Part shown: positions 1 through 12,819 of the stretch, piece by piece | Numbering within the stretch: position 1 is the first letter of the stretch | How the letters are laid out: every line of letters starts with the position of its first letter | Virus record (IMG/VR): IMGVR_UViG_2778260995_000007 | Coordinates: 1 to 12,819 of that record | Source: a virus | Lineage: Duplodnaviria; Heunggongvirae; Uroviricota; Caudoviricetes | Reading direction: 5' to 3' (one strand) | Length of the DNA: 12,819 nt | The notes under the pieces: model-generated | What the model saw: the letters and a program-made list of their open reading frames with translations, nothing else | The model's database searches: none | What the model was told of the DNA's origin: nothing | Program-made: the position numbers and the translations under genes

Positions 1-117
1 GTTTCGCCGATTGTTTCCGGTGAGGTTATCCGTTCCCGTGGCGGCTCCACCTCTGAATTTACGCCGGGATATGTCAAACCCAAGCACTTAGCATGGCTTT
101 CTGAGGCTTTCGTGTAG
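1..117 (+). pseudogene. E: 5' fragment of lambda-type major capsid protein gene E; frame enters from upstream of the window, is broken after codons ...GYVKPKH (nt 87) and runs into element sequence to a TAG at 115-117
   Basis: Frame 1 translates VSPIVSGEVIRSRGGSTSEFTPGYVKPKH, which matches my recollection of lambda gpE; the continuation ...KPKHEVNPQMTLRRL is found at 10733 onward. Confidence 0.8.
77..86. repeat. Left copy of 10-bp direct repeat AACCCAAGCA (putative attL core)
   Basis: Identical 10-mer at 10731-10740; flanking bases differ on both sides. Confidence 0.6.
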
Positions 118-249
118 TTGCTGGTTTTTACACTTAATCTTTTGATAATAAAGAATAAGTTTATCTGGTGCTTTCACTGAATTTTCCTCGTTATCTGTGT
201 GTTGCAATCATCTCTGTATTGCAGCTTGTATTGCTTTTTGGGGCTAAAA

Positions 250-1485
250 ATGGCTGGCGAGAACAAACTGAGCGACAAAGCGCTTAAAGGATATCTGGGG
301 AAACCCAGAGAAAAGCAGATCACCATTGCTGATGGAAAGGGGCTTTCTATTCGTGTGAGTACTAAAGGGGCTGTGAGCTTTGTTTTCTTCTACAGGTTAG
401 CAGGTGGCCGGGCTGCTCCGGTCTGGCTAACGTTGGGTAAATATCCTGATATGTCACTCAAACAGGCAAGGGAAAAGCGCGACGAGTGCCGTGGTTGGTT
501 GGCTGACAAACGTGATCCGCGTATCCAGATAAAGATTCAGGCTGAAGAACGCTTAAAGCCGGTCACAGTGGAGGATGCACTAAATTACTGGTATGAAAAT
601 TACTGTAAGGTGCGTCGTAAAACTCATGCTGTAACGCTTGGCAGATTTCGAAAGCATATCTTTCCCTATATCGGTCATTTGCCCGTAAATGACACTCACC
701 TATATGAATGGCTGGACTGTTTTGACCGAATTAAACGTAATGCACCAGTTATGGCGGCGTATGTTTTTTCTGACACTAAATTAGCTCTTCGTTTTTGTCG
801 GGTACGCCAGTACGCGACGTGTGATGCTTTAAAGGATTTGCGCATGAGTGATGTGGGGCAGATTGCAGGTAAGCGGGATCGGGTTCTGGATGAAGCCGAA
901 CTCGGCCAGCTCTGGAAGGCAATTTTTGTCGAGCCTGATTTAAAACTAATGTCTGAATACACGCGAAAAATGTTTGTGCTTTGTACACTATTTGGATGTC
1001 GAATGAGTGAAGCCCGATTATCAGAATGGAGCGAATGGGATCTCGAAAGTTGGGTTTGGACTGTACCAAAAGATCACTCAAAAACTGGTGTTGAAATCGT
1101 CAGACCAGTACCTGAAATTCTACGACAGTGGGTAACGGATGTTCACGAAGAGACAAAACATACTGGTTATGTGCTGGGAAGTCTGCGAATTAGAGAAAGC
1201 GTAAGCAAGATTGGGGGGAAAATCGGTAAACGTTTGGGCCATGAAAAACAATGGTCACTACACGACCTTAGAAGAACGCTATCTACTCATCTAAGTGATC
1301 TCGGTGTTGAATTTTATGTAGTAGAACAACTGTTAGGCCATGCGCTACCTGGCGTGGCAGGTGTTTACAACCGGAGTAAGTTTATGGCTAAAAAACTGGA
1401 TGCTCTGGAACTCTGGACTACATATCTCAATAGCATCGCAGGTGCTGATTCAAAAGTGACAATCCTCAAACAAAAGGCTGGTTAA
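250..1485 (+). CDS. int: Tyrosine site-specific integrase, P4-type
   Basis: ORF 199-1485; start placed at ATG 250 (MAGENKLSDKALKGYL...). N-terminal region and C-terminal ...HDLRRT...LLGHA... motifs are typical of P4-family integrases; sits next to the attL repeat. Confidence 0.88.
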   Translation: MAGENKLSDKALKGYLGKPREKQITIADGKGLSIRVSTKGAVSFVFFYRLAGGRAAPVWLTLGKYPDMSLKQAREKRDECRGWLADKRDPRIQIKIQAEERLKPVTVEDALNYWYENYCKVRRKTHAVTLGRFRKHIFPYIGHLPVNDTHLYEWLDCFDRIKRNAPVMAAYVFSDTKLALRFCRVRQYATCDALKDLRMSDVGQIAGKRDRVLDEAELGQLWKAIFVEPDLKLMSEYTRKMFVLCTLFGCRMSEARLSEWSEWDLESWVWTVPKDHSKTGVEIVRPVPEILRQWVTDVHEETKHTGYVLGSLRIRESVSKIGGKIGKRLGHEKQWSLHDLRRTLSTHLSDLGVEFYVVEQLLGHALPGVAGVYNRSKFMAKKLDALELWTTYLNSIAGADSKVTILKQKAG

Positions 1486-1486
1486 C

Positions 1487-1714
1487 ATGAAAAAAATGGC
1501 AATTGTTGATAAAAAGGGTCTGGAGTACATTCCTAACATTGATCGTATGATCCGTGAGAAAGAATGTCGGGAGCTAACCACTCTTGCGAACAGCACACGC
1601 TGGAAGCTGGAGAAGGAAGGAAAATTTCCTAAGCGGATCAAGATTGGCGCTACTGCGGTAGCTTACCGTCTCTCCGAAGTTCAGGCATGGATTAGGGGGG
1701 AATGGCGGACATAA
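1487..1714 (+). CDS. alpA: AlpA-family HTH regulator / excisionase-like protein
   Basis: 75 aa; ...LTTLANSTRWKLEKEGKFPKRIKIGATAVAYRLSEVQAWI is a typical AlpA (Phage_AlpA) HTH; ATG lies 1 nt after the int stop, suggesting translational coupling. Confidence 0.8.
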   Translation: MKKMAIVDKKGLEYIPNIDRMIREKECRELTTLANSTRWKLEKEGKFPKRIKIGATAVAYRLSEVQAWIRGEWRT

Positions 1715-1750
1715 ATGTTGTAGTAAATTGTTATATAAAAGGGTGTAAGC

Positions 1751-2626
1751 ATGGCTACTCGAAAAAAAAATAGCGTAGAAATGAAAACTGTTTGTGAACT
1801 AATCATATCAAGAGATGATATGAAAGATAAAATTCAAGACAGAATTCAAAAAGGATTATTACTCCTACAGAAAAGCATAAATAACAATAGTGACTTGGAG
1901 CTGTTTAATGCTGATTACAGGAAATGGAGTGATTTTAATGCTGAGCTACTGAAGCGTAGTTTCACAAATGATGATTTCAAAGAAGAATATGAAGGTGGGG
2001 CATTTGGTGTTATTTCATTGTACGAGACTTCCTTGGGAGAAAAAATCAGTGAGGCTACGCGTAAACTCCAGAGTAAGATAAGAAAACTAGAGTCGATTAT
2101 GGAGCGACTGGAGTTAATTCCTATATCTTCCAAAGTTGTTGAAGAAAATATTGAAGTACCTCAGAGTTCAGCGGTAAAAACCAAAAAAGTATTCATTGTT
2201 CATGGAAGAGATGAAGTATCAAAAACCAACTTAGAAGTGTTTTTAAGAGAAATTGGCTTAGAACCTATTGTTCTCCATAGGCAAGCTGATGTAGGTCAGA
2301 CAGTGATTGAGAAATTTGAAGCAAATAGTGATGTTGGTTTCGCATTCATTCTTCTCACACCTGATGAGATCGCTTATTTATTTCCGCAAGACTCTTTACC
2401 TGATAATGAAAGAGAAAAGGAGTTACGTGCACGACCAAATGTAATGTTTGAATTTGGTTATTTCGTAGGGAAATTAGGTCGTTCTAAGGTTTGTTGTCTA
2501 TACACAGGTGATGTAGTGATTCCAAGTGATTTGAATGGTCTTATTTATAAAAAATTCAATTCTTCTATTGAAGAAGTAGCATATAGCATTATTAAAGACT
2601 TGCGAGCTACTGGTTACGCAGTTTAG
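1751..2626 (+). CDS. Cargo protein with an N-terminal helical region and a C-terminal TIR-like domain (resembles the COG4271/CAP12-type TIR-like fold); candidate anti-phage effector
   Basis: 291-aa ORF, visibly AT-rich compared with neighbours. C-terminal KKVFIVHGRDE...FAFILLTPDE...RARPNVMFEFGYFVGKLGRSKV matches the motif pattern I recall for TIR-like proteins. Not confirmed by search. Confidence 0.6.
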   Translation: MATRKKNSVEMKTVCELIISRDDMKDKIQDRIQKGLLLLQKSINNNSDLELFNADYRKWSDFNAELLKRSFTNDDFKEEYEGGAFGVISLYETSLGEKISEATRKLQSKIRKLESIMERLELIPISSKVVEENIEVPQSSAVKTKKVFIVHGRDEVSKTNLEVFLREIGLEPIVLHRQADVGQTVIEKFEANSDVGFAFILLTPDEIAYLFPQDSLPDNEREKELRARPNVMFEFGYFVGKLGRSKVCCLYTGDVVIPSDLNGLIYKKFNSSIEEVAYSIIKDLRATGYAV

Positions 2627-2655
2627 TAAATTCTTTGAACTAAAAATCTGCATAG

Positions 2656-2688
2656 ATATAGAGCCATTCGAGATAAATGGCTCTATAT
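2656..2688. terminator. Perfect 13-bp inverted repeat (ATATAGAGCCATT / AATGGCTCTATAT, 7-nt loop) between convergent genes; possible bidirectional terminator or protein-binding palindrome
   Basis: Seen directly; lies 30 nt after the stop of the 1751-2626 gene and 14 nt after the stop of the minus-strand RHH ORF. AT-rich stem, and a T-run on the minus strand only after a 9-nt spacer, so terminator function is uncertain. Confidence 0.4.
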
Positions 2689-2701
2689 GAAATATTATCT
2701 G

Positions 2702-2881
2702 TTAAATTTTGACTTCATATCCGCGTTGCTGTAGTTCTTTGCGAATAATCCTTTTAATCCAGGCTGCTAAAGATTCGTCTCCATCTACTTGCTGTGCTTG
2801 CTCCATCAACTCCCTCAACTCAGGATCTAACCGAAACTGGAACGGAGGATTACCACGTCTTTGATTTTTGTGTGTTGACAC
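2702..2881 (-). CDS. Small Arc/MetJ-like ribbon-helix-helix DNA-binding protein (59 aa from GTG 2881; a 34-aa version from ATG 2806 would lack the ribbon strand)
   Basis: Minus-strand translation VSTHKNQRRGNPPFQFRLDPELRELMEQAQQVDGDESLAAWIKRIIRKELQQRGYEVKI has an Arc-like strand-helix-helix pattern. Below the length cut-off of the supplied ORF track; start codon uncertain. Confidence 0.4.
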   Translation of the reverse strand: MSTHKNQRRGNPPFQFRLDPELRELMEQAQQVDGDESLAAWIKRIIRKELQQRGYEVKI

Positions 2882-2929
2882 GTCAATTACACCCGATGTA
2901 ATGTGTTAATGTGTGATGACACATTACAT
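2875..2929. promoter_or_regulatory. Promoter/operator region: plus-strand TTGACA (2875-2880) - 16 nt - TGTAAT (2897-2902); 11-bp inverted repeat ATGTAATGTGT (2896-2906) / ACACATTACAT (2919-2929) plus tandem TAATGTGT (2899-2906, 2907-2914)
   Basis: Seen directly in the intergenic region between the minus-strand RHH ORF and the plus-strand operon starting at 3012; palindrome arms overlap the candidate -10 elements. Confidence 0.4.
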
Positions 2930-2948
2930 ACGTGTTTAGGAAAATGCA

Positions 2949-2981
2949 ACGCCTCGACGTGCGGGAACACCATCGAGGCGT
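2949..2981 (+). promoter_or_regulatory. GC-rich hairpin in the 5' leader of the replication operon (9-bp stem ACGCCTCGA / TCGAGGCGT, 15-nt loop); no downstream U-tract
   Basis: Perfect inverted repeat seen directly, 30 nt upstream of ATG 3012. Confidence 0.3.
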
Positions 2982-3011
2982 CTAACCAACCCGTTAAATG
3001 AGGTAACGATT

Positions 3012-3377
3012 ATGGCTGGAACACAGCATACCCAAACTCACCCTAAATTTATATACACCTTTCTGGCACTACACCACGACCGCATGGCAGATGGAGCAAC
3101 TACGGTACATGTAGCCGCTGACACGCTGGTTGATGCCCGCAAGATGGTTAAGGAGATGGGCTATACTGCGGCTTTCTGGAAAGGGCGTGAAGAAAACACG
3201 CTGTTTATTCAGAAATGCGAAAACAATTTCATCTGGCGTTTTATCGCCCTGAGCACCGCACAACCACGCGTAATACACATCGAGGCCGCCAGCGAACAGG
3301 AAGCCCGGCTGCAATCCCCAACTGGCTACGTGATGATATTCGCCGCCCGTATTCGTCAGGAGGTGTGCCATGAATGA
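3012..3377 (+). CDS. Hypothetical protein, first gene of replication-module operon
   Basis: 121-aa ORF with GAGGT RBS 6 nt upstream; stop overlaps the next start. Confidence 0.65.
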   Translation: MAGTQHTQTHPKFIYTFLALHHDRMADGATTVHVAADTLVDARKMVKEMGYTAAFWKGREENTLFIQKCENNFIWRFIALSTAQPRVIHIEAASEQEARLQSPTGYVMIFAARIRQEVCHE

Positions 3378-3594
3378 TCTTTATTTTAAAGTGCTGACAC
3401 ATGCTGAAAACGCGCTCGTTTGTGGCAAAAATATGCGAGAAATCTTATCAACCTGGCTTGATGGGACAACAAATGCGGAACACGATGAACGGGATGCTAA
3501 TTTAGCTGGAGCGTTAATTACGTTACTTGATCCTGTCATCAAAGAGCTGGATGAAGCTATAAAAATACACGACCAGAGCTATACCGGAGAATAA
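3370..3594 (+). CDS. Hypothetical small protein
   Basis: 74-aa ORF; AGGAGG 4 nt upstream of ATG; 8-nt overlap with the upstream ORF. Confidence 0.6.
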   Translation: MNDLYFKVLTHAENALVCGKNMREILSTWLDGTTNAEHDERDANLAGALITLLDPVIKELDEAIKIHDQSYTGE

Positions 3595-3597
3595 AAA

Positions 3598-3885
3598 ATG
3601 AAAAATAAATTTTCTGGCTTTATTGCCAGCGGTCAAACTCATTCAAAAATCAGCCTTGGGGATATTTTCAAAGACAGCTATGGCTATCGGGTAAAGATTA
3701 TTTCGGTTGATGATCGTCGTGTCTCTTATTTGCGTGATGGTTATGATTTTGAATGTGTTATGCCGCGTCAGCAGTTCGAAAGAGATTTCATTCTGGTAAA
3801 AAATTGCAAGACAGATAATCAGAGGCGTGCCGCAGGCTATATCCGCAAAATTCGGGCAATGTTAGTTGCCGGAGGTAACAAATGA
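3598..3885 (+). CDS. Hypothetical small protein
   Basis: 95-aa ORF packed tightly between neighbours; stop overlaps the primase start (ATGA). Confidence 0.6.
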   Translation: MKNKFSGFIASGQTHSKISLGDIFKDSYGYRVKIISVDDRRVSYLRDGYDFECVMPRQQFERDFILVKNCKTDNQRRAAGYIRKIRAMLVAGGNK

Positions 3886-5633
3886 AACGTGCTCCGAACT
3901 TAAAATACCAACCGCGCGACAAAATGACAGAAGTCATCATTTTTGCTGGCAGTGATGCCTGGAGCCATGCAAAAGAATGGAATGAATGGGCGGGTAAGCA
4001 TATTGCCGCCGACGATGTGCCGCCTGTCGTGCTGGCTGATGAGCAACTGAAAAATATCACCGATTACCGGATCATTGATGAAGATCGTCAGTGTGTGCGT
4101 GTTTACCGCGCAGGACATATCACAGAGCACAGCATGACGCAGATTGTTACGTTACTGGCTGTGGCTGGAGTGAAGACCGTACACGAATACGCGGGGATTA
4201 CTGACACCAGCCCAGTGGATTTATCCGAGCAGTTGCCGCGACTCAAAGAGGAATGCGAGCGTGGGGAAAGTCTGGTGCTTAATCTTCCGACGAAGCAAAA
4301 GGCGCAACTTTCACAGATGGCAGACAGTGAACGTGCACAACTACTTGCCGATCGCTTTGATGGTGTGTGTGTTCATGCAGAAAGTGAAATCGTCCACGTA
4401 TGGCGCGGCGGGGTATGGTGTCCGGTCAGCACAATGGAGCTGAGCCGCGAAATGGTGGCGATCTATTCAGAGCACAGGGCCACGTTCAGCAAACGTGTAA
4501 TCAATAACGCCGTGGAAGCGTTAAAAGTTATTGCCGACCCCATGGGGGAGCCGTCCGGTGATTTGCTACCGTTCACTAATGGTGTGCTTAACCTGAAAAC
4601 GGGGGAATTTTCTCCGCACTCGCCGGAGCACTGGAGCACCACGCACAATGGCATTGAGTACACGCCACCAGTAGCAGGGGAAAACATCCGCGATAATGCG
4701 CCAAATTTCCATAAATGGCTTGAACATGCTGCAAGAAAAGACCCGCGCAAGATGATGCGTATATGTGCCGCGTTATACATGATTATGGCGAACCGCTACG
4801 ACTGGCAGATGTTCATTGAGGCCACCGGAGACGGGGGAAGCGGTAAGAGTACATTTACCCATATTGCCACCCTGCTTGCTGGCAAACAGAACACCGTAAG
4901 CGCGGAGATGACATCACTCGATGATGCAGGAGGGCGCGCGCAGGTTGTCGGGAGTCGTCTTATCGTCCTTGCCGATCAGCCGAAATATACGGGGGAAGGC
5001 ACGGGCATCAAGAAAATCACGGGAGGCGATCCCGTTGAAATTAACCCGAAATATGAGAAGCGATTCACGACGATAATAAGGGCGGTGGTACTGGCAACCA
5101 ATAACGACCCGATGATCTTTACCGAACGAGCCGGAGGTGTGTCACGCCGTCGGGTGATTTTCCGGTTCGACAACATTGTAAGGGAGGACGAAAAAGACAA
5201 GGAATTACCGGAAAAGATAGCGGCAGAAATCCCCGTAATTATCCGCCGCTTGCTGGCTAATTTTGCTGACCCTGAAAAGGCACGGGCTTTATTACTGGAA
5301 CAGCGTGACGGTGATGAAGCTCTGGCAATAAAGCAGCAAACGGATCCGGTTGTTGAGCTTTGCGCGGCGCTGGAGTTTCTGGAGGAAGCTCGTGGGCTAA
5401 TGATGGGCGGTGGTGGTGACACCGTGAAGTACACGACCAGAAACAGCCTTTACCGTGTCTATATGGCCTTCATGGCATACACAGGAAAGGGGAAATGTTT
5501 GAGCGTGAATGAGTTCGGAAAGGCTATGAGGTCAGCGGCGAAAGTTTACGGATATGAATATATTACGCGAAAAGTTAAGGGAGTCACGCAGACCAACGCA
5601 ACGACTACTGATGATTGCGATGCGTTTTTATAA
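3882..5633 (+). CDS. Replication initiator: primase-associated SF3 helicase-type protein (P4 alpha C-terminal / D5-like family; the pri-rep of PICI-type satellites)
   Basis: 583 aa; Walker A GDGGSGKST and a downstream hydrophobic strand ending in D (LIVLAD) typical of P4-family primase-helicase C-terminal domains; GGAGG RBS; followed by an iteron array. Confidence 0.85.
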   Translation: MKRAPNLKYQPRDKMTEVIIFAGSDAWSHAKEWNEWAGKHIAADDVPPVVLADEQLKNITDYRIIDEDRQCVRVYRAGHITEHSMTQIVTLLAVAGVKTVHEYAGITDTSPVDLSEQLPRLKEECERGESLVLNLPTKQKAQLSQMADSERAQLLADRFDGVCVHAESEIVHVWRGGVWCPVSTMELSREMVAIYSEHRATFSKRVINNAVEALKVIADPMGEPSGDLLPFTNGVLNLKTGEFSPHSPEHWSTTHNGIEYTPPVAGENIRDNAPNFHKWLEHAARKDPRKMMRICAALYMIMANRYDWQMFIEATGDGGSGKSTFTHIATLLAGKQNTVSAEMTSLDDAGGRAQVVGSRLIVLADQPKYTGEGTGIKKITGGDPVEINPKYEKRFTTIIRAVVLATNNDPMIFTERAGGVSRRRVIFRFDNIVREDEKDKELPEKIAAEIPVIIRRLLANFADPEKARALLLEQRDGDEALAIKQQTDPVVELCAALEFLEEARGLMMGGGGDTVKYTTRNSLYRVYMAFMAYTGKGKCLSVNEFGKAMRSAAKVYGYEYITRKVKGVTQTNATTTDDCDAFL

Positions 5634-5646
5634 AAAATGGCAATGG

Positions 5647-5875
5647 TTATCTACCTTGTCTACCTGACTGAAAGAAAATACTTTTATTTCAATGTATTAA
5701 TGCAGGTAGATAACTATTTTTCACTGTCTACCTGTTATCTACCTTATCTACCCATTTTTGTAGACAGGTAAGGAGACGGGTAGAGATGAGGTAGACAGCT
5801 ATTTGGGGCTGTCTACCTCCCTGAAACCCGCGCCATTACTGGCCTGATAACTAATCAGGTAGACAAGGTAGACAA
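5647..5875. repeat. Iteron array, putative replication origin: about 12 copies of GGTAGA(C/T)A in both orientations around an AT-rich stretch (5667-5700)
   Basis: Seen directly: TTATCTACC/TTGTCTACC tandem at 5647-5664; GGTAGATAA at 5705-5713; three copies at 5725-5753; GGTAGACAA x2 at 5858-5875, and others. Confidence 0.7.
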
Positions 5876-5922
5876 GGTGGTGGTGCACAAAAAACTTTTT
5901 AAACGAGGGGGTAAAAATAAAA

Positions 5923-6165
5923 ATGCACACATCAGGAAAACTGAACAAACATATAAAGCCACATTACCGCGCCCTTGATATGGCTGAACACTGGCTAAGG
6001 GTGGCGATTAAGGCAATAGACCGCAACGCCGGGGAAGGATACGCGAAAGCACATCCCGAACTGATAAGCGCATTCATGACAACGGCGGCTGCAAACTTTG
6101 CCACGCTGACCGAACGGGAGATTGCCGAAGCGGAGGAAGTGACAACCATCAATATTAAGTCCTGA
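5923..6165 (+). CDS. Hypothetical protein
   Basis: 80-aa ORF with a G-rich RBS upstream; no recognisable motif. Confidence 0.5.
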   Translation: MHTSGKLNKHIKPHYRALDMAEHWLRVAIKAIDRNAGEGYAKAHPELISAFMTTAAANFATLTEREIAEAEEVTTINIKS

Positions 6166-6176
6166 GAGCAGGCAGC

Positions 6177-6626
6177 ATGACGGCGCAAATAGCAGCTTAC
6201 GGGCGGCTGGTGGACGAGCCACAGGTAAAACATACCAGCAAGGGAACACCCATGACACTGGCACGGATGGCGGTATCTTTGCCATGCAGCCAGGCAGATG
6301 ACGGAACGGCGACGATGTGGTTATCTGTGCTGGCGTTTGGCAGACAAGCCGACGCGCTGGCAAAGCATCACAAAGGCGAACTCCTGAGCGTGGCGGGTAA
6401 TATGCAGGTGAGCCAGTGGACTGGACAGAACGGTGAAACGCGGCAGGGCTGGCAGGTTATCGCAGACAGCGTAATCAGTGCGCGAACGGTGCGACCGGGC
6501 GGCAAAAAAGGTCAACAGGGTCAGGCTACTGACGCACTGAACAGAGCAAAACAACAGGCAGATCAGCAAGGAAGCCATCCACCAGTGGGAGATAATGAAC
6601 AATGGGGAGATGATATTCCGTTTTAA
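6177..6626 (+). CDS. Single-stranded DNA-binding protein-like (OB fold) with canonical acidic C-terminal tip ...DDIPF
   Basis: 149 aa; OB-fold pattern (...WLSVLAFGRQAD...KGELLSVAGNMQVSQWTGQNGETRQGWQV...) followed by a Gly/Gln-rich linker and C-terminal DDIPF, as in bacterial SSB. Confidence 0.7.
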   Translation: MTAQIAAYGRLVDEPQVKHTSKGTPMTLARMAVSLPCSQADDGTATMWLSVLAFGRQADALAKHHKGELLSVAGNMQVSQWTGQNGETRQGWQVIADSVISARTVRPGGKKGQQGQATDALNRAKQQADQQGSHPPVGDNEQWGDDIPF

Positions 6627-6645
6627 ATATTGCCAATAAAAAAAG

Positions 6646-6670
6646 GCCGGAAAAAAATAAATTTTCCGGC
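6646..6670. terminator. Hairpin (9-bp stem GCCGGAAAA / TTTTCCGGC, 7-nt loop) downstream of the SSB-like gene; A-tract on the 5' side only
   Basis: Seen directly; a T-run follows the stem only when read on the minus strand, so plus-strand termination is uncertain. Confidence 0.35.
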
Positions 6671-6844
6671 ATGCTACATAAATCCCGACCAAAGGGAGTG
6701 AAGATATTAACACTAATTATCCGCGCTGAAGTTGTTATCCCAAAACTTTATACAACATTGCACTCGGTTGCATGTATTCGCATGACAAATATCGGTGATA
6801 GCATATATCCACAATTATTTTTAATGAATGCAAAGAGGATGCGT

Positions 6845-7885
6845 ATGGTCGATTTATATTCGCCTACCCAGCTTGTACAGGTGGTTAATGCTGTAGATGT
6901 ACAAAAACAACTAAATGCGTTGTTTACCAGTTTGTTTTTTACTCGCTCTGTAATGTTTGAATCGCGCGATATTATTCTTGATACAATCGACGATCCAAAT
7001 ATCCCAATTGCAGCGTTTTGTTCTCCTATGGTGGGTAGTAAAGTTTCACGTGACGAAGGGTACGAATCAAAAACAATTCGTCCAGGCTATATGAAGCCGA
7101 AAAGCAGCATTGATCCAAATAAGTTAGCTGTGCGCCCTGCTGGTGTATCACCTGAGCAATACAATGCTTTTGGAGCGCGTAATATTAAAGTTAAACAGGC
7201 GATTGTAAATCAGGCTAAAGCTATTCGTGCACGTATTGAATGGCTTGCCGTTCAGGCAATCACAACGGGGAAAAATATCATTGAGGGCGATGGTATTGAA
7301 CGTTATGAACTGGACTGGAATATAAAACCACAAAATATTATCACGCAGTCTGGCGGTGCTGAGTGGTCAGGTAAGGATAAAGAAACTTTTGATCCAAATG
7401 ATGATATTGAGAGCTACGCAGAATTTAGTGAGGGCGTCACTAATATCATCATTATGGGCGGTAATGTATGGAAGAAATACCGTTCATTCAGAGCGATAAA
7501 AGAGGCTCTGGATACCCGCCGTGGTTCTAATTCCGAACTGGAAACGGCCCTTAAAGACCTTGGTGATTCGGTGAGTTTTAAAGGGTATATGGGCGATGTT
7601 GCGATTGTTGTTTACAGCGGACGTTATACCGACGAGGACGGAACTGAAAAACATTTCCTTGATCCTGATTTGATGGTGCTTGGCAATACGGCTCTTCAGG
7701 GGATTGTCGCCTATGGCGGTATTCAGGATCCGGAGCTAACCCGAATGGGGCTGACTAAAGCCGAACTTGCACCGAAAAACTATATTGTGCCTGGTGATCC
7801 GGCTATTGAGTACGTACAAACGCACTCTGCACCACAGCCAATACCGGCCCGCATCAATCGTTTTGTTACCGTTCGCATTGGCTAA
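6845..7885 (+). CDS. Major capsid protein, diverged homologue of lambda gpE, encoded by the element
   Basis: Start moved to ATG 6845 (AAGAGG RBS), giving 346 aa, close to lambda E in size. Shares blocks with lambda E as I recall it: PGYMKPK, ITQSGGAEW, LDTRRGSNSELETA, GDVAIVVYSG, VLGNT, GDPA (roughly 40-50% identity by eye). Confidence 0.8.
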   Translation: MVDLYSPTQLVQVVNAVDVQKQLNALFTSLFFTRSVMFESRDIILDTIDDPNIPIAAFCSPMVGSKVSRDEGYESKTIRPGYMKPKSSIDPNKLAVRPAGVSPEQYNAFGARNIKVKQAIVNQAKAIRARIEWLAVQAITTGKNIIEGDGIERYELDWNIKPQNIITQSGGAEWSGKDKETFDPNDDIESYAEFSEGVTNIIIMGGNVWKKYRSFRAIKEALDTRRGSNSELETALKDLGDSVSFKGYMGDVAIVVYSGRYTDEDGTEKHFLDPDLMVLGNTALQGIVAYGGIQDPELTRMGLTKAELAPKNYIVPGDPAIEYVQTHSAPQPIPARINRFVTVRIG

Positions 7886-7894
7886 GGGGGAGCA

Positions 7895-8236
7895 ATGGCT
7901 ACTCATTACACTGAACTCATGTCTGGCACTGAAGCACTGGTTACTACGCTGGGGATATTTTCAGCCAATAAAGGGGTAATACCTGCGTTTACGCCACTGA
8001 TGCAGGAAGATGCAACTGGTGCGCTAGTGGTATGGGATGGAACGAGCGCAGGCAAAGCGGTTTATGTTTCCGCTGTACAAATCGACACAGCGAAAAAAAC
8101 ACAGGCACAGGTTTATAAGACAGGTGTTTTAAATGTTGATGCTCTGAACTGGCCTGAGTCTGTAAGAGAACTGTCGGCAAAGGTTGCCGCGTTTGTTGGC
8201 TCAGGTATTTCTGTTCAGCCGCTGGCTCGTGTGTAA
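7895..8236 (+). CDS. Head decoration protein, homologue of lambda gpD
   Basis: 113 aa; ...PAFTPLMQEDATGALVVWDGTSAGKAV...YKTGVLNVDALNWPE...AAFVGSGISV parallels lambda D (...PAMTPLM...LVAWDGTTDGAAV...YKSGTFRYEDVLWPE...TAFAGTAISIV); AAGGGGGA RBS. Confidence 0.8.
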   Translation: MATHYTELMSGTEALVTTLGIFSANKGVIPAFTPLMQEDATGALVVWDGTSAGKAVYVSAVQIDTAKKTQAQVYKTGVLNVDALNWPESVRELSAKVAAFVGSGISVQPLARV

Positions 8237-8247
8237 AGGGGGATACA

Positions 8248-8631
8248 ATGCAGAATCATTACAATGACCTTAAGCCAATTGCCGAAATGATGTACCCGAA
8301 TCCAGCTGTAGAGGAATTAAAAGCTATCGCTGACAAAATGTGTTTAAGCGAGCGCCTTGTTGATATGAATCAGGTGATGGAAATTACAACCCTGAGTCGG
8401 CGTACACTGCTAAACCTTGAGGCTAGTGGAGAGTTCCCGGAGCGTGTGCAGGTTACGGAAGGGCGTAAGGCCTGGTATTTAAGTGAAGTGATCGACTGGA
8501 TAAATAATATTCCTCGCGCTTCTGAATATTGCCGCGTACCTGTCCCAAAAAAGCCAGATGCGGCGCTATGCCTCAAGATTGAGCGTGTACGCCGCAATGC
8601 ACGGGATGGTCGCTATAAGCTGATTGGTTGA
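8248..8631 (+). CDS. AlpA/MerR-like HTH DNA-binding protein, larger than a typical AlpA, function unknown
   Basis: 127 aa; central ...MEITTLSRRTLLNLEASGEFPERVQVTEGRKAWYLSEVIDWI is an AlpA-type HTH; AAAGGGGGA RBS; follows the capsid genes. Confidence 0.65.
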   Translation: MQNHYNDLKPIAEMMYPNPAVEELKAIADKMCLSERLVDMNQVMEITTLSRRTLLNLEASGEFPERVQVTEGRKAWYLSEVIDWINNIPRASEYCRVPVPKKPDAALCLKIERVRRNARDGRYKLIG

Positions 8632-9287
8632 TGAAATTAGGGCCCGCTCTGGCTGGCGGGTCCTTTCCGGCGATCCAGAACGTTACGGGGCGTCAGGCGC
8701 GCAGTTTTTTGCTATTTATGAAAATTTTCCGGTTTAAAGCGTTTCCGTTCTTCTTCGCCGTAACTTAATGTTTTTATTAGAAACACCCACTAAAAAGAAA
8801 GGAAACAACAGATGCTGAAAACGTGTTTTTTGGACAGTGTCGTTTCCTTTCTCTGGTTTTGTTGCCGTCTGTCGCGGTCTGTCACCAGAAAAAACTCTCA
8901 CCCCTGCGTTGAATCAGGCTCTACACTAAAGTAGACAATAACGCGCCGCTGGCTTCGCTTCATGGTCGTGGCCTACTTCTGCACTATCGCAACAGCCTTA
9001 TGCGCCCTGCTGGTGAGCTATTGAGTAAGCAGAATGCGGATTACAAGGCATCCTATGCGTTTTGTGGCGTACCGAACACAACCGCTCAGGTGAATCCCGT
9101 TTTGTTAGTTTATGGAAAGAGCCGTATCGGGGGCGCAATCATTTCTGCGTGGATCTATGTCGAAGACAAAATGTGGTATGCGCATCTGGCCGGAGGGTGA
9201 GCAATTTATCAGGGAAGTATCATCTCTACAGGTTTAAGACAACCAGAAGAAGTTATCGAGCAAGTTGGGTATGAAGATTTTCCTATA

Positions 9288-9551
9288 ATGGTAACGTTTA
9301 AGATTCCGGTGTTTGGTATCGTGGTGGGAACATGGAGGAATGTGGATCCGGCAAAATCATTCGGTTTTTTCCGTCAATTCATTGTGGACTGGGATTAGGA
9401 GAGTGTGCTTACTGACCAAGCTCTTAAGGGATATTTATATGCTTACCTAGGCACTGATGAAGCACTTTTCAAATGCTGGGCGGATTATATGAAATGCAGA
9501 TTGGCAGAAAATGAACATAGGTTTAAAAAATATACTGAGACTGTAAACTGA
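9288..9551 (+). pseudogene. Possible decayed ORF: 87-codon frame broken by an in-frame TAG at 9396-9398, no RBS
   Basis: Translation MVTFKIPVFGIVVGTWRNVDPAKSFGFFRQFIVDWD*ESVLTDQALKGYLYAYLGTDEALFKCWADYMKCRLAENEHRFKKYTETVN*; sits in a ~1 kb stretch (8632-9676) without convincing genes. Confidence 0.2.
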
Positions 9552-9676
9552 GTTCGCTGTGATTTAATTCGTGATTTAATCGAAGAGAGGAAAGTGAAAT
9601 GAGCCCTGCTAAGGGCCGCATCTTTATATTGAACGACTTATCACTAGATTAGGAAATCACTTCGAATGATATGCTG

Positions 9677-10549
9677 TTACTTTATAATTCCGTCTTTGAA
9701 AACCATTTTCTTAGCGCCAGAGGTATAGTTTTGAACAATTCCCAATAACTCTTTTGAATAGTCAATTGTAGAAATTGTCTCTGCCGGTTTGTTATATGTG
9801 TAATTAAGTGAGTAACCTCTCAGCTTTAATCTTAAATCACCATTTTCTAACTCTAAATAAGCGTCGGTTAGCTCTTCTTTGTAAGTGCCTGCACCATATT
9901 GGATGTTAGGTACTCTCGCGGATAAGGAGTTTTCTAAGTCGCAGAGAGAATACTTGTCGTGGGTAGTATTATCAACGATGAATATTTGGTTGTTAAGTAG
10001 TCGACTGAACCTTGAATTTAAATCATCTATGTTTAAATTTTTTTGCGACTCAAGCCAGCTTGCATCTATCATTGGTGAGAATGCAGTTATTCTGGGGGGA
10101 GTTATCGCGACGATATTCAATTGAATAGTTTTGATAAGTGGTGTTCCATCTGGCGCGCGCCAGTCTTCGTTATCAGCTTCACGAACTATTAGAAGGTCAA
10201 TTTTATATTGTTCGGCTTTTTTTTGAGCCCCACTTTGATACCCTGTTTTGGTTGCATAAATTAGTCTTAGGCCGGGAATATCTGCTGTTTTTCCGATGAA
10301 TGCGTCAATTTTCTCGATACTTACACTTGAAGCGTAGTCTTTGCATTCGATTACGGTCTTATATTCATAACCTCCTAAGTTAAATTCCCAATACACATCG
10401 AATTGCCTAGTTATGCCGTTTTTATCTACGATTTTTTTGTTTACTTCAACGGTGATGTTTTTCAAGTGAGAAATTTTCTCAGCTTGTATCAAGCTTTGAT
10501 GAATCGCCCCAACAAATTCCTCATAATCTCTGCCAGTGTTTTTAGTCAT
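9677..10549 (-). CDS. Mrr-type restriction-endonuclease-like (PD-(D/E)xK) protein with an uncharacterised C-terminal domain; candidate defence nuclease
   Basis: Start placed at ATG 10549 (GAGG RBS 8 nt upstream; the track's 10567 start is TTG), 290 aa. N-terminal half shows a PD-(D/E)xK pattern (...QFDVYWEF...YKTVIECKDY...SIEKIDAFIGK...LIYATKTGYQSGA...). Visibly AT-rich. Confidence 0.75.
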   Translation of the reverse strand: MTKNTGRDYEEFVGAIHQSLIQAEKISHLKNITVEVNKKIVDKNGITRQFDVYWEFNLGGYEYKTVIECKDYASSVSIEKIDAFIGKTADIPGLRLIYATKTGYQSGAQKKAEQYKIDLLIVREADNEDWRAPDGTPLIKTIQLNIVAITPPRITAFSPMIDASWLESQKNLNIDDLNSRFSRLLNNQIFIVDNTTHDKYSLCDLENSLSARVPNIQYGAGTYKEELTDAYLELENGDLRLKLRGYSLNYTYNKPAETISTIDYSKELLGIVQNYTSGAKKMVFKDGIIK

Positions 10550-10730
10550 TGTGCAGCCTCGTTCCAATCATCAGAGTAACGGTTAAATATTTATACACCT
10601 TGAATCTATGAACAGATTTATGTCACTTCACGCTGTATTGCACGCTGTATTGCATTAAGGAGGAATAATGTCGATTTGATGATGTTTTATCAAGTAAATT
10701 CATTCACATCCTTTCATATTTGACTCATGT

Positions 10731-10740
10731 AACCCAAGCA
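10731..10740. repeat. Right copy of 10-bp direct repeat AACCCAAGCA (putative attR core)
   Basis: Identical to 77-86; the E reading frame resumes directly here (CCC AAG CAT GAG GTG = P K H E V). Confidence 0.6.
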
Positions 10741-11521
10741 TGAGGTGAATCCGCAGATGACCCTGCGTCGCCTGCCGGATGAAGATCCGCAGAATCTGGC
10801 GGACCCAGCTTACCGCCGCCGTCGCATCATCATGCAGAACATGCGTGACGAAGAGCTGGCCATTGCTCAGGTCGAAGAGATGCAGGCAGTTTCTGCCGTG
10901 CTTAAGGGCAAATACACCATGACCGGTGAAGCCTTCGATCCGGTTGAGGTGGATATGGGCCGCAGTGCGGCGAATAACATCACGCAGTCCGGCGGCACGG
11001 AGTGGAGCAAGCGTGACAAGTCCACGTATGACCCGACCGACGATATCGAAGCCTACGCGCTGAACGCCAGCGGTGTGGTGAATATCATCGTGTTTGATCC
11101 GAAAGGCTGGGCGCTGTTCCGTTCCTTCAAAGCCGTCAAGGAGAAGCTGGATACCCGTCGTGGCTCTAATTCCGAGCTGGAGACAGCGGTGAAAGACCTG
11201 GGTAAAGCGGTGTCCTATAAGGGGATGTATGGCGATGTTGCCATCGTCGTGTATTCCGGACAGTACGTGGAAAACGGTGTCAAAAAGAACTTCCTGCCGG
11301 ACAACACGATGGTGCTGGGGAACACTCAGGCACGCGGTCTGCGTACCTATGGCTGTATTCAGGATTCGGACGCACAGCGCGAAGGCATTAACGCATCTGC
11401 CCGTTACCCGAAAAACTGGGTGACCACCGGCGATCCGGCGCGTGAGTTCACCATGATTCAGTCAGCACCGCTGATGCTGCTGGCTGACCCTGATGAGTTC
11501 GTGTCCGTACAACTGGCGTAA
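10733..11521 (+). pseudogene. E: 3' fragment of lambda-type major capsid protein gene E (from ...KPKHEVNPQMTLRRL to the C-terminus)
   Basis: Translation matches my recollection of the lambda gpE C-terminal ~260 aa almost residue for residue; an in-frame TAA at 10730-10732 closes the frame upstream. Confidence 0.85.
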
Positions 11522-11523
11522 TC

Positions 11524-11550
11524 ATGGCCCTTCGGGGCCATTTTCTCTCT
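11524..11550 (+). terminator. Rho-independent terminator-like hairpin after E (ATGGCCC-TTCG-GGGCCAT followed by a T-rich tract)
   Basis: 7-bp GC-rich stem with TTCG tetraloop and TTTTCTCTCT tail, seen directly 3 nt after the E stop. Confidence 0.6.
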
Positions 11551-11562
11551 GTGGAGGAGTCC

Positions 11563-11961
11563 ATGACGAAAGATGAACTGATTGCCCGCCTCCGCTCGTT
11601 GGGTGAGCAACTGAACCGTGATGTCAGCCTGACGGGGACGAAAGAAGAACTGGCGCTCCGTGTGGCAGAGCTGGAAGAGGAGCTTGATGACACGGATGAC
11701 ACTGCCGGTCAGGACACCCCTCTCAGCCCGGAAAATGTGCTGACCGGGCATGAAAATGAGGCTGTATCAGCGCAGCCGGATACCGTGATTCAGGATGCGG
11801 CTGATCTGGTCACCGTTGTGGCACTGGTGACGCTGCATACTGATGCACTTCACGCCATCCGGGATGAACCTGTGGCATTTGTGATGCCGGGAACGGCGTT
11901 CCGTGTCTCTGCCGGTGTGGCAACCGAAATGACAGAACGCGGCCTGGCCAGAATGCAATAA
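11563..11961 (+). CDS. FI: Lambda-type head assembly/DNA packaging protein FI
   Basis: Start at ATG 11563 with GGAGGAG RBS (the track's ORF begins upstream at 11524); MTKDELIARLRSLGEQLNRDVSLTGTKEELALRVAEL... matches lambda gpFI as I recall it. Confidence 0.88.
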   Translation: MTKDELIARLRSLGEQLNRDVSLTGTKEELALRVAELEEELDDTDDTAGQDTPLSPENVLTGHENEAVSAQPDTVIQDAADLVTVVALVTLHTDALHAIRDEPVAFVMPGTAFRVSAGVATEMTERGLARMQ

Positions 11962-11972
11962 CGGGAGGCGCT

Positions 11973-12326
11973 GTGGCTGATTTCGATAACCTGTTCGATG
12001 CTGCCATTGCCCGCGCCGATGAAACGATACGCGGGTACATGGGAACGTCAGCCACCATTACATCCGGTGAGCAGTCCGGTGCTGTGATACGTGGTGTTTT
12101 TGATGACCCTGAAAATATCAGCTATGCCGGACAGGGCGTGCGCGTTGAAGGCTCCAGCCCGTCCCTGTTTGTCCGGACTGATGAGGTGCGGCAGCTGCGG
12201 CGTGGAGACACGCTGACCATCGGTGAGGAAAACTTCTGGATAGACCGGGTTTCGCCGGATGATGGCGGAAGTTGTCATCTCTGGCTTGGACGGGGCGTAC
12301 CGCCTGCCGTTAACCGTCGCCGCTGA
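11973..12326 (+). CDS. FII: Lambda-type head-tail joining protein FII
   Basis: GTG start with GGGAGG RBS; MADFDNLFDAAIARADETIRGYMGTSATITSGEQSGAVIRGVFDDPENISYAGQGVRVEG... matches lambda gpFII. Confidence 0.88.
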   Translation: MADFDNLFDAAIARADETIRGYMGTSATITSGEQSGAVIRGVFDDPENISYAGQGVRVEGSSPSLFVRTDEVRQLRRGDTLTIGEENFWIDRVSPDDGGSCHLWLGRGVPPAVNRRR

Positions 12327-12337
12327 AAGGGGGATGT

Positions 12338-12819
12338 ATGGCCATAAAAGGTCTTGAGCAGGCCGTTGAAAACCTCAGCCGTATCAGCAAAACGGCGGTG
12401 CCCGGTGCCGCCGCAATGGCCATTAACCGCGTTGCGTCATCCGCGATATCGCAGTCGGCGTCACAGGTTGCCCGAGAGACAAAGGTACGCCGGAAACTGG
12501 TAAAGGAAAGGGCCATGCTGAAAAGGGCCACGGTCAAAAATCCGCAGGCCAGAATCAAAGTTAACCGGGGGGATTTGCCCGTAATAAAGCTGGGTAACGC
12601 GCGGGTTGTCCTGTCCCGACGCAGGCGTCGTAAAAAGGGGCAGCGTTCATCCCTGAAAGGTGGCGGCAGCGTGCTTGTGGTGGGAAACCGTCGTATTCCC
12701 GGCGCGTTTATTCAGCAACTGAAAAATGGCAGGTGGCATGTTATGCAGCGTGTGGCCGGGAAAAACCGTTACCCCATTGATGTGGTGAAAATCCCGATGG
12801 CGGTGCCGCTGACCACGGC
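12338..12819 (+). CDS. Z: Lambda-type tail protein Z, 5' partial (runs off the window end)
   Basis: ATG 12338 with AAAGGGGGA RBS; MAIKGLEQAVENLSRISKTAVPGAAAMAINRVASSAISQ... matches lambda gpZ; no stop before the window end. Confidence 0.85.
   Translation, partial: MAIKGLEQAVENLSRISKTAVPGAAAMAINRVASSAISQSASQVARETKVRRKLVKERAMLKRATVKNPQARIKVNRGDLPVIKLGNARVVLSRRRRRKKGQRSSLKGGGSVLVVGNRRIPGAFIQQLKNGRWHVMQRVAGKNRYPIDVVKIPMAVPLTT

Follow-up and report, generated by a model that had tools for sequence, protein, structure and literature searches.

The stretch of DNA analysed here (the window, 12,819 nucleotides (nt) long) comprises positions 1 to 12,819 of the IMG/VR virus record IMGVR_UViG_2778260995_000007 (Caudoviricetes). 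Between positions 3012 and 3885 it carries three small open reading frames (ORFs), which follow one another on the same strand directly ahead of a primase-helicase gene and which we call ORF1, ORF2 and ORF3 (Table 1). The window holds a helper-embedded phage-inducible chromosomal island (PICI), which lies inside the capsid gene of a lambdoid prophage and belongs to a published class of elements. Our explanation of the locus is that the early (replication) operon of this island begins, next to its promoter, with ORF1-3, of which the first is a gene of the Icd/Kil family and the other two are smaller genes placed next to the replication initiator; we put the probability of this explanation as a whole at about 0.6.

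The three ORFs, of 121, 74 and 95 amino acids (aa), are real, tightly packed and at the head of the replication operon, as the initial annotation of this DNA had held. The RefSeq annotation, made with the PGAP pipeline, contains the same three coding sequences with identical starts, and the good ribosome-binding sites that had been described are present as Shine-Dalgarno sequences 6-8 nt before each ATG. The overlapping stop and start codons that had been ascribed to the set are found at two junctions: ORF1 and ORF2 overlap by 8 nt (ATGAATGA), an overlap that is kept in related loci, and ORF3 and the primase gene overlap by 4 nt (ATGA). ORF2 and ORF3, by contrast, are separated by a gap of 3 nt (TAAAAAATG) and do not overlap.

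The initial annotation had also made its proposal depend on the conservation of the ORFs across related elements, and this conservation proved to be extensive. A megablast search with positions 2650-4000 gave matches in 727 of 5,426 complete Escherichia coli genomes; a sensitive blastn search with positions 3012-3885 reached 1,612 E. coli genomes, mostly through the core of ORF1, and in 46 genomes a match in this second search covered at least 80% of the three-ORF query. Conserved copies of each of the three ORFs occur in many genomes of E. coli and many IMG/VR contigs, with identities that go down to about 35-45%. Purifying selection acts on all three. Codon comparison gave nonsynonymous (pN) and synonymous (pS) values of about 0.29 and 0.72 for ORF2 and of 0.24 and 0.60 for ORF3, with a median dN/dS of about 0.22-0.23 for both, and in ORF1 the pN/pS ratio is 0.23 for the N-terminal and 0.27 for the C-terminal half (11 distinct alleles). 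Because both halves of ORF1 are constrained, we regard the ATG at 3012 as its true start. Sequence searches of the PDB with ORF1, ORF2 and ORF3 returned no meaningful matches.

The Icd/Kil-like first gene

The C-terminal part of ORF1, residues 73-116 (nt 3228-3359), matches the NCBIfam family NF033153, 'host cell division inhibitor Icd-like', with 76.9 bits against a cut-off of 25. On the same profile the P1 Icd protein scores 52.6 bits over its residues 12-51, and P4 Kil scores 73.9 bits. BLASTP aligns residues 73-114 of ORF1 with residues 12-50 of P1 Icd at 45% identity (E value 3e-6), and the residues F73-I-W-R76-F, E95 and R113 of ORF1 fall opposite F12-I-W-R15-F, E32 and R49 of Icd, while Y24 is not conserved. 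The core of P1 Icd, residues 12-51, is minimal and sufficient for binding of FtsZ, loss of the Z-ring and filamentation of E. coli (Zhao et al., 2025; PMC11897509), and R15, E32 and R49 are its FtsZ contacts in an AlphaFold3 model, which is the sole basis on which they are assigned (PMC11897509). RefSeq already names the product of ORF1 an Icd-like protein, and the 'unknown function' given to it in the initial annotation no longer applies.

Both halves of ORF1 are related to this family. P4 Kil is aligned by BLASTP with residues 3-48 (E 7e-5) and again with residues 72-114 (E 5e-4) of ORF1, the two halves of ORF1 align with each other (E 0.003), and in an AlphaFold2 (AF2) model built from a 37-sequence alignment, with a predicted local distance difference test score (pLDDT) of 69, a beta-beta-alpha-beta unit is present twice. 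Since both halves match Kil and each other, and the fold is doubled, we conclude that ORF1 is a tandem duplication of the Icd/Kil unit, with a degenerate N-terminal unit at about residues 12-61 and a canonical Icd-like core at residues 73-116. Relatives of ORF1 hardly differ over the roughly 45 residues of the C-terminal core, while their N-terminal part is a mosaic. The first gene occurs in single-unit forms of 67 aa, as fusions of Ash to Icd and with other extensions; at least five unrelated versions of its N-terminal part replace one another, beside a leader and a core that are retained. A Foldseek search of the PDB with the ORF1 model returned only ribosomal-protein noise at low template-modelling (TM) scores, and the sole match in a tblastn search of phage genomes with ORF1 and ORF2 was vB_KppS-Ant, a 'phage' record that resembles a capsid-forming PICI (cf-PICI).

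A different label is attached to ORF1 in PHROG, where its match is annotated as a 'transcriptional repressor'; this label is not evidence of DNA binding. In the P4 genome (NC_001609, our locus L004) the minus-strand ORF at 8168-8584 is labelled 'cI gene product / transcriptional repressor', and it is the last 65 residues of this ORF that give the 73.9-bit match to NF033153. We take these residues to be Kil, nested in the longer Eta. The true immunity factor of P4 is an RNA. The repressor label of ORF1 most likely derives from the obsolete P4 annotation, which appears to have spread into the annotations of phrog_1743, phrog_6196 and phrog_6928.

The place of the gene can be compared with that of icd in P1 and of kil in P4. 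P1 icd encodes a protein of 73 aa in the immI operon (c4-icd-ant); like the ORF1 gene it stands first in its operon and overlaps the next gene, and both appear to be under RNA control. The two differ in that Icd is a single unit with a C-terminal tail, whereas ORF1 has two tandem units and no such tail, and in that icd is followed by an antirepressor gene, whereas the gene after ORF1 does not encode an antirepressor. In the left operon of P4 (NC_001609) the order is kil, an 8-nt overlap, epsilon, orf151, cnr and alpha, and Kil is the cell-killing, first-translated product (PMC10111431, citing Forti 1999). The window operon likewise begins with an Icd/Kil homologue, passes by an 8-nt overlap to the next of its small coupled ORFs and ends in the primase-helicase; the nested long (Eta) and short (Kil) products of P4 are not evident in the window. 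An Icd/Kil division inhibitor is the near-universal first gene of the replication operon in the P4-like satellites and PICIs examined, both cf-PICI-like and helper-embedded.

From this family membership we consider it most likely that ORF1 arrests host cell division upon induction of the satellite, presumably by targeting FtsZ, and the protein is probably toxic at high dose. A rather unlikely alternative is that ORF1 acts mainly in cis: its translation would prevent Rho-dependent termination and deliver ribosomes to the genes downstream, and toxicity would be secondary. There are precedents in both relatives, as translation of P4 eta/kil prevents termination and gives read-through into downstream genes (PMC10111431), and the GenBank record of P1 describes icd as 'apparently required for expression of ant', the gene that it overlaps. 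A cis function would also be consistent with the conserved 8-nt overlap of ORF1 and ORF2 and with the persistence of leader and core beside the exchangeable N-terminus. However, few protein segments of these islands are as strongly conserved as the Icd-like core, which is nearly invariant over its roughly 45 residues (pN/pS about 0.3), and a mere translated spacer needs none of that; this speaks for a function of the protein itself.

ORF2, ORF3 and the replication initiator

ORF3 is a DUF4222 protein. Its residues 17-68 match the entire 53-position Pfam profile PF13973 with 78.2 bits against a gathering score of 27; the C-terminal tail, residues 69-95, is basic and satellite-specific, and the whole protein has an isoelectric point (pI) of 9.9 and a net charge of +9. 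From genomes of E. coli and contigs of IMG/VR we collected 94 distinct regions that run from the Icd-like gene to the primase gene, and in 90 of these the stop codon of the DUF4222 gene overlaps the ATG of the primase gene by 4 nt. The recurring order in E. coli, Citrobacter and IMG/VR loci is Icd-like gene, zero to four small ORFs, ORF2 family, DUF4222 and primase, with a distance between the Icd-like gene and ORF2 of 0 to about 1 kb. The primases directly after DUF4222 are of the D5_N/DUF5906 or the DUF927 type. The position ahead of an initiator gene holds in ordinary temperate phages too, where the strongest matches to DUF4222 are found at the beginning of replication genes of O-like or 'primosomal' type. 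In Shigella phage SfIV (KC814930, L036), for example, an unannotated DUF4222 ORF of 73 aa at 2438-2659 shares 11 nt with the beginning of the gene for the replication protein. This ORF lies in another frame within the annotated 112-aa 'hypothetical protein' SfIV_40, a possible mis-call, and in several other phage records the DUF4222 matches extend across the junction of a 'hypothetical protein' with a replication gene. Among the alleles, DUF4222 tracks the N-terminal 120 aa of the primase (Spearman 0.44) more closely than it tracks ORF2 (0.32) or the rest of the primase.

ORF2 matches phrog_2196 (E 3.9e-35) and no Pfam or NCBIfam family. The family to which it belongs is very small and satellite-restricted: when 1.84 billion representative proteins were searched exhaustively with its profile, 23 matched, 17 of them of 44-84 aa and the remainder long repetitive proteins that are probably spurious, and a scan of one genome per species found no relatives. 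The AF2 model of ORF2 (14 sequences, pLDDT 89.9) is a confident two-helix hairpin, with helices at residues 2-32 and 37-72, and in a Foldseek search of the PDB this model found no match at E <= 1e-3, the weaker matches being generic hairpins of helices. With a pI of 4.6 and a net charge of -8, ORF2 is an acidic protein. In 76 of 85 distinct regions the ORF2-family gene ends 2-5 nt 5' of the DUF4222 gene, and the contexts that are visible are PICI-type islands in which it lies between the Icd-like gene and DUF4222; in vB_KppS-Ant an ORF2-family gene stands directly before the primase gene. In strain PK8261, whose island is near-identical elsewhere, the ORF2 slot is taken by an ORF of 106 aa that is not related to ORF2 and that likewise encodes an acidic protein.

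Two further observations concern this pair of genes. The G+C content of ORF2-ORF3 is 40% (about 35% at third codon positions), against about 51% (about 54% at third positions) for ORF1 and the primase gene, which suggests that the pair is a cassette acquired from a different background. In addition, P4-like satellites and PICIs both have, in the slot directly before the Cnr or DUF4222 gene, a small protein of acidic character, with net charges from -3 to -8. The examples, at L124 2238-2462, L125 2277-2504 and L120 4359-4679 and ORF2 in the window, are unrelated in sequence, and the shared slot may be a coincidence or a case of convergent function.

In P4-like islands of E. coli, AlpA is followed by an Icd-like protein, a 74/75-aa acidic protein, Cnr and alpha, and the interval between epsilon and alpha is filled by the cnr family and an unknown 75-aa family (PMC8628076). 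The layout parallels that of the window (Icd-like, ORF2, DUF4222, primase), such that ORF2 and ORF3 occupy the slots of the 75-aa protein and of the copy-number regulator Cnr; the analogy is one of position only. The P4 hallmarks epsilon/Ash, Cnr (DUF5375), Sid, Delta and Psu are absent from the window proteins scanned, and hhalign comparison of ORF2 and ORF3 with epsilon, orf151 and Cnr gave probabilities of about 0.1. Assignment of ORF2 to the '75-aa family' of P4-like satellites (PMC8628076) was considered and is not supported at the sequence level by hhalign.

A fixed, translationally coupled position before replication-initiator genes suggests a link of ORF2 and ORF3 with the replication module, and on this gene context they are most likely small cofactors or regulators of the initiator. 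The known biology of DUF4222 comes from RgdR, a protein encoded by O-island 51 of enterohaemorrhagic E. coli (EHEC), which activates the type III secretion system of the locus of enterocyte effacement (LEE) via Ler and needs an RGD motif (R20) to do so (PMC10877973). RgdR and ORF3 have the same Pfam domain, are both small and both come from prophage-type elements. They differ in the extra basic C-terminal tail of ORF3 and in the motif, since ORF3 reads L20-G21-D22 at the RGD site when this is placed by the residue number of PMC10877973 and not by alignment; a relative (L035) has RGD at the aligned place.

We consider it doubtful that ORF2 and/or ORF3 instead target the helper prophage or the transcription of the host, and not the replication of their own element. 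The activation of LEE type III secretion genes by RgdR, itself from an EHEC prophage, would suit such a role, as would the example of P4 epsilon, which derepresses the helper and whose gene comes immediately after kil, again with an overlap of 8 nt; the exchange of the ORF2 slot in PK8261 and the low G+C content of ORF2-ORF3 fit a swapped cassette. Yet neither protein has similarity to epsilon/Ash, ORF3 carries LGD in place of RGD, and the DUF4222 gene overlaps the initiator gene by 4 nt in nearly all of the assembled regions, with a similar overlap in SfIV, a temperate phage that has no helper. A role at the initiator remains our preferred reading for ORF2 and ORF3.

These results also bear on the function that the initial annotation had suggested for the three ORFs, namely helper interference or host takeover by small early proteins of unknown function. 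Host takeover agrees with the placing of ORF1 in the Icd/Kil family, whereas nothing in this analysis points to helper interference by ORF2 or ORF3. The remote-homology check that had been proposed leads to Icd/Kil for ORF1 and to DUF4222 for ORF3, but for ORF2 only to phrog_2196. 'Unknown function' is thus half right for ORF3, which has a Pfam family and one characterized relative in RgdR.

The leader and a candidate antisense RNA

The leader between the promoter candidate of the operon and ORF1 contains a hairpin whose arms are 2949-2957 and 2973-2981. Practically every related island keeps this hairpin, regardless of the version of the first gene that comes next. The structure is specific to the minus strand. 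In the window the leader folds with -32.2 kcal/mol on the minus strand (z -4.70, 0/200 shuffles) and with -22.0 kcal/mol on the plus strand (z -1.97); the minus strand is the more stable in all 34 of 34 leader variants (mean -35.1 vs -21.8 kcal/mol), each of which has two hairpins. Across 24 variants of the hairpin itself the mean fold is -24.0 kcal/mol on the minus strand against -16.7 kcal/mol on the plus strand, and the minus strand uses 69 G.U pairs where the plus strand uses 4. RNAalifold finds 14 pairs on the minus strand, five of them with compensatory double changes; by count 96.7% of the cells in the structure are paired, against at most 52% in slid controls, and the covariation of the hairpin is 0.308 against 0.167 when shuffled (0/500).

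These features outline a candidate cis-antisense RNA (Table 1). Its 5' hairpin, at 3008-2992, has the loop CCUCAUU, which carries the anti-Shine-Dalgarno sequence CCUC, and its GC-rich 3' hairpin, at 2982-2948, is followed by the U-rich tract UUGCAUUUU; the plus strand has TCTAACCA after the hairpin instead of a U-tract. The candidate is complementary to the Shine-Dalgarno sequence (3000-3003) and the start codon (3012-3014) of ORF1. Its -10-like element reads TATG(C/A)T or TATATG in 33 of 34 leader variants and TATAAT in the other one, and lies in codons 4-7 of the first gene, which on the minus strand is about 75 nt upstream. It is retained although the first gene has five unrelated N-termini, and it shows as a conserved His codon in the protein. 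The combination of a strand-specific covarying hairpin, a U-tract and a promoter at fixed distance is the generic pattern of an intrinsically terminated cis-antisense small RNA. We also considered a structure of the plus-strand 5' untranslated region, an mRNA stabilizer and a nut-like site as explanations of positions 2949-2981, and rejected these in favor of the minus strand, to which the G.U pairs, the folding energies and the U-tract all point.

Searches of Rfam with the leader gave two sub-threshold matches, to SymR (RF01809; 24.1 bits against a gathering score of 61, minus strand) and to the R1162 countertranscript (RF00043; 20.4 bits against 55), and both span exactly the predicted RNA. 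The R1162 consensus and the leader have CUAACCAccAac, GGAG and AUGGCU in common. Nothing in the whole window reached a gathering score, and C4 (RF01695) and isrK gave no match in the window, nor at E <= 10 on the leader alone, so an immunity RNA of the P1/P4 type is not present here. Immunity in P4 depends on the CI RNA and Rho-dependent termination, whereas no RNA of CI/C4 type with seqA/seqC targets was found in the window leader; the C4 RNA of P1 is processed from the same transcript, whereas the candidate here would be a true cis-antisense transcript. In its architecture it resembles the cis-antisense regulators SymR, the 75-nt countertranscript of R1162/RSF1010 and P1 C4 / P4 CI, being about 75 nt long, with two hairpins, and covering the ribosome-binding site of a first gene, and its target is likewise either toxic (as are SymE and icd/kil) or at the head of a replication operon (as in R1162). 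This resemblance to SymR and R1162 is confined to architecture, and the candidate is not a member of either family. The RNAs reported in some islands are only C4 and isrK matches (PMC10111431), and in our literature search we found no paper that describes such an antisense RNA in E. coli PICIs.

Transcription of the operon would start at a sigma-70-like promoter candidate. The number of promoter-like sites in the region is not above shuffle expectation, and position is the main argument for this one; A/T-rich -10-like hexamers also occur 5-8 nt 5' of the hairpin in other leader variants. A perfect 11-bp inverted repeat that overlaps the -35 element is a candidate operator, and the divergently encoded protein of 59 aa, whose gene adjoins both promoter candidate and repeat, is its probable repressor. 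This protein matches the NCBIfam family NF041551 (YlcI_YnfO_N) weakly, with 18.8 bits and below the cut-off of 30, and the Arc-like repressor family phrog_228 (E 1.6e-5); its RefSeq name is YlcI/YnfO family protein. A YlcI/YnfO-type gene is divergent at the same position in the related PICIs inspected, and a Citrobacter locus has an unassigned 101-aa ORF there instead. Because homology with other islands starts only at about 2959, the repressor and operator are swapped as a module.

RNA-level control in the leader, of which the initial annotation had said nothing, is likely, and we propose that the candidate antisense RNA probably masks the ribosome-binding site of ORF1 when the operon is not fully induced. 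A wider proposal, which we make tentatively and at somewhat less than even odds, joins the leader to the genes. The leader, here and in most enterobacterial PICIs of this type, would encode a so far undescribed family of cis-antisense RNAs of about 75 nt. Such an RNA would mask the ribosome-binding site of the toxic Icd-like gene and gate the replication initiator through translational coupling, combining the logic of a type I toxin-antitoxin system with that of a plasmid countertranscript, as a switch for satellite immunity or copy number. ORF2 and DUF4222 would be dedicated partners of the initiator, and DUF4222 would be common to satellites and lambdoid phages.

The island and the proposed mechanism

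Positions 199-10700 of the window make up the island, which interrupts the lambda E-type gene for the major capsid protein of a lambdoid prophage. It splits this gene in E. coli genomes as well, three of which have a capsid fragment on either side of the island; E. coli TUM9757 and E04 are strains that carry it. An integrase and AlpA lie at one end of the island, and the right-hand fragment of the split capsid E gene matches profile positions 94-328. This agrees with a helper-embedded PICI of class '11capE', whose site is near profile codon 80 (E:Phage_cap_E:80) and which was described by Tommasini, Mageeney & Williams (2023; PMC10111431). PICIs of this class share with the window the site in the lambdoid major capsid gene, the possession of a capsid gene of their own and a four-zone layout of integration, Bro, replication and late genes; in that scheme ORF1-3 sit where the Bro zone meets the replication zone. 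PMC10111431 makes no mention of Icd-like proteins, DUF4222, the ORF2 family or an antisense RNA of the present type.

Table 1. Features of the window, with the three ORFs, the initiator gene and the leader first.
Feature	Position	Strand	Description
ORF1	3012-3377	+	121 aa, ATG start; Shine-Dalgarno GAGG at 3000-3003, 8 nt 5' of ATG
ORF2	3370-3594	+	74 aa; Shine-Dalgarno AGGAGG, 6 nt 5' of ATG
ORF3	3598-3885	+	95 aa; Shine-Dalgarno GGAG, 8 nt 5' of ATG
Primase-helicase	3882-5633	+	583 aa, directly after ORF3; Shine-Dalgarno GGAGG, 6 nt 5' of ATG
Inverted repeat	2896-2906 / 2919-2929		Perfect, 11 bp (ATGTAATGTGT / ACACATTACAT), 12 nt between arms
Promoter candidate for ORF1-ORF2-ORF3-primase	2916-2945	+	Sigma-70-like; ATGACA, 18 nt, GAAAAT; 9/12 matches
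Candidate cis-antisense RNA	2941-3018	-	About 75-78 nt; two hairpins and U-tract, predicted
-10-like hexamer of candidate antisense RNA	3025-3030	-	TATGCT, inside ORF1 codons 5-7; predicts antisense start near 3018
YlcI/YnfO / Arc-like protein	2702-2881	-	59 aa, ribbon-helix-helix type; divergent from ORF1
Integrase	199-1485		One end of island
AlpA	1487-1714		Adjoins integrase
TIR protein	1751-2626	+	291 aa; CAP12/Pycsar-type TIR domain; PADLOC candidate single-gene defence family PDC-S35 (E 5e-67)
Island's own lambda-E-type capsid and D-type decoration genes	6671-8236		
Second AlpA-family gene	8248-8631	+	127 aa, helix-turn-helix; PF05930 (E 7.6e-9)
Mrr-like nuclease	9677-10567	-	296 aa; Mrr_cat restriction-endonuclease domain, 22.6 bits, just above Pfam cut-off
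3' fragment of capsid E gene	10745-11521		Matches Phage_cap_E profile positions 94-328
FI/FII genes	11524-12326		After capsid fragment

The primase-helicase is P4 alpha-like, with D5_N (E 1.3e-15), DUF5906 and Pox_D5 C-terminal domains; it matches phrog_864 (E 4e-161) and scores 103.5 bits on TIGR01613, just below the cut-off of 108.7. It is 583 aa long here, and near-identical loci from E. coli and IMG/VR encode a protein of 606 aa (e.g. L001 13233-15053), a difference at the C-terminus that is possibly due to a frameshift or an alternative end. The genes that follow it encode an 80-aa protein, SSB, the E-type capsid protein, the D-type decoration protein and a second AlpA-like protein. The gene for the latter, directly 3' of the capsid and decoration genes, is kept in the sister islands L001 and L002 and could be a late-gene regulator. 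The TIR gene, between AlpA and the repressor, occupies a variable cargo slot, where related islands hold BRO-N, AntA/AntB or other genes. The Mrr gene sits between the late genes of the island and the right-hand capsid fragment; L001 and L002 have a different TIR protein, or a HEPN and DUF262 pair, at this site, which suggests a second hotspot for defence cargo.

This cargo bears on a further interpretation, that the Icd-like protein, the small ORFs and the primase are chiefly an abortive-infection or superinfection-exclusion module. In a prophage-borne locus of E. coli ECOR61 an Icd-like protein and five linked genes, a primase among them, cause phage-triggered cell death (Silas et al., bioRxiv 10.1101/2023.04.06.535777); the Icd-like protein there has an N-terminal extension, and removal of its gene abolished the effect. 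The island of the window carries candidate defence genes of its own in the TIR protein (PDC-S35) and the Mrr-like nuclease. Against this, the likeness to ECOR61 is known from description only, as 'Icd-like plus primase', and the effect was weak when reconstituted; PADLOC has no defence model that matches ORF1-3, and the same gene order is that of the P4 replication operon. We judge a chiefly defensive module to be improbable, and note that it is compatible with the replication-operon explanation, as one protein could serve both purposes. That some or all of the ORFs are unexpressed chance frames, as their small size and the lack of a Pfam or NCBIfam family for ORF2 might suggest, is excluded by the family matches, Shine-Dalgarno sequences, conservation to about 35-45% identity and pN well below pS of all three, and by the confident structure prediction for ORF2.

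Taken together, the gene structure, family membership, conservation, selection and junction geometry of ORF1-3 and the strand-specific covarying hairpin of their leader lead us to the following mechanism. Transcription would start at the promoter whose -35 element overlaps the inverted-repeat operator, where the divergent YlcI/YnfO-type repressor probably holds it off. A single mRNA would carry ORF1, ORF2, ORF3 and the primase gene, with translation coupled by the overlapping or abutting stop and start codons. On induction, ORF1 would arrest host division through its C-terminal Icd core of 40 residues, the part that binds FtsZ in P1 Icd, and ORF2 and ORF3 would be made together with the replication initiator and act as its small cofactors or regulators. 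Before full induction, the antisense RNA of about 75 nt would probably block the ribosome-binding site of ORF1 and keep the toxic first gene silent, and through coupling this block would also dampen the downstream replication genes.

A number of points weigh against this explanation. The N-terminal unit of ORF1 lacks conserved core residues, with T16 in the place of R15 of P1 Icd, for example, and the doubled protein may behave differently from Icd; confidence in its model is only moderate (pLDDT 69). The exchange of the ORF2 slot in PK8261 suits an accessory gene better than an essential cofactor, and RgdR, the sole characterized DUF4222 protein, is a regulator of virulence genes and not a replication factor. 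The related loci were recruited by their similarity to ORF2 or DUF4222 and are thus a biased sample, and the signal of co-inheritance between DUF4222 and the primase, which is suggestive, would also arise from simple linkage. Comparison by hhalign showed no similarity of ORF2 to P4 epsilon, orf151 or the 74/75-aa proteins of P4-like islands, nor of DUF4222 to P4 Cnr and a Cnr-like protein. In the leader, the promoter and operator calls fit the consensus and are not statistically distinctive, the antisense promoter has no recognizable -35 element, and the support from Rfam for the antisense RNA is sub-threshold only.

The island is an ordinary member of a known system: its element class is published, and ORF1 and ORF3 already carry standard database names. 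The tandem Icd/Kil architecture, the context rule that links ORF2, DUF4222 and the initiator, and the candidate antisense RNA were not found described in the literature. DUF4222 has a very rigid gene-context signature and is coupled to initiators of different domain types, which gives a concrete hypothesis for this family. If true, the minus-strand hairpin with its covariation and its promoter points to a family of regulatory RNAs that Rfam lacks, and such an antisense RNA could explain the silence of the toxic gene and of the replication genes in these islands. The Icd/Kil first gene, if confirmed, would link the old genetics of P1 and P4 to the FtsZ result of 2025, and would suggest a general step for satellites in which the cell is frozen while the element replicates.

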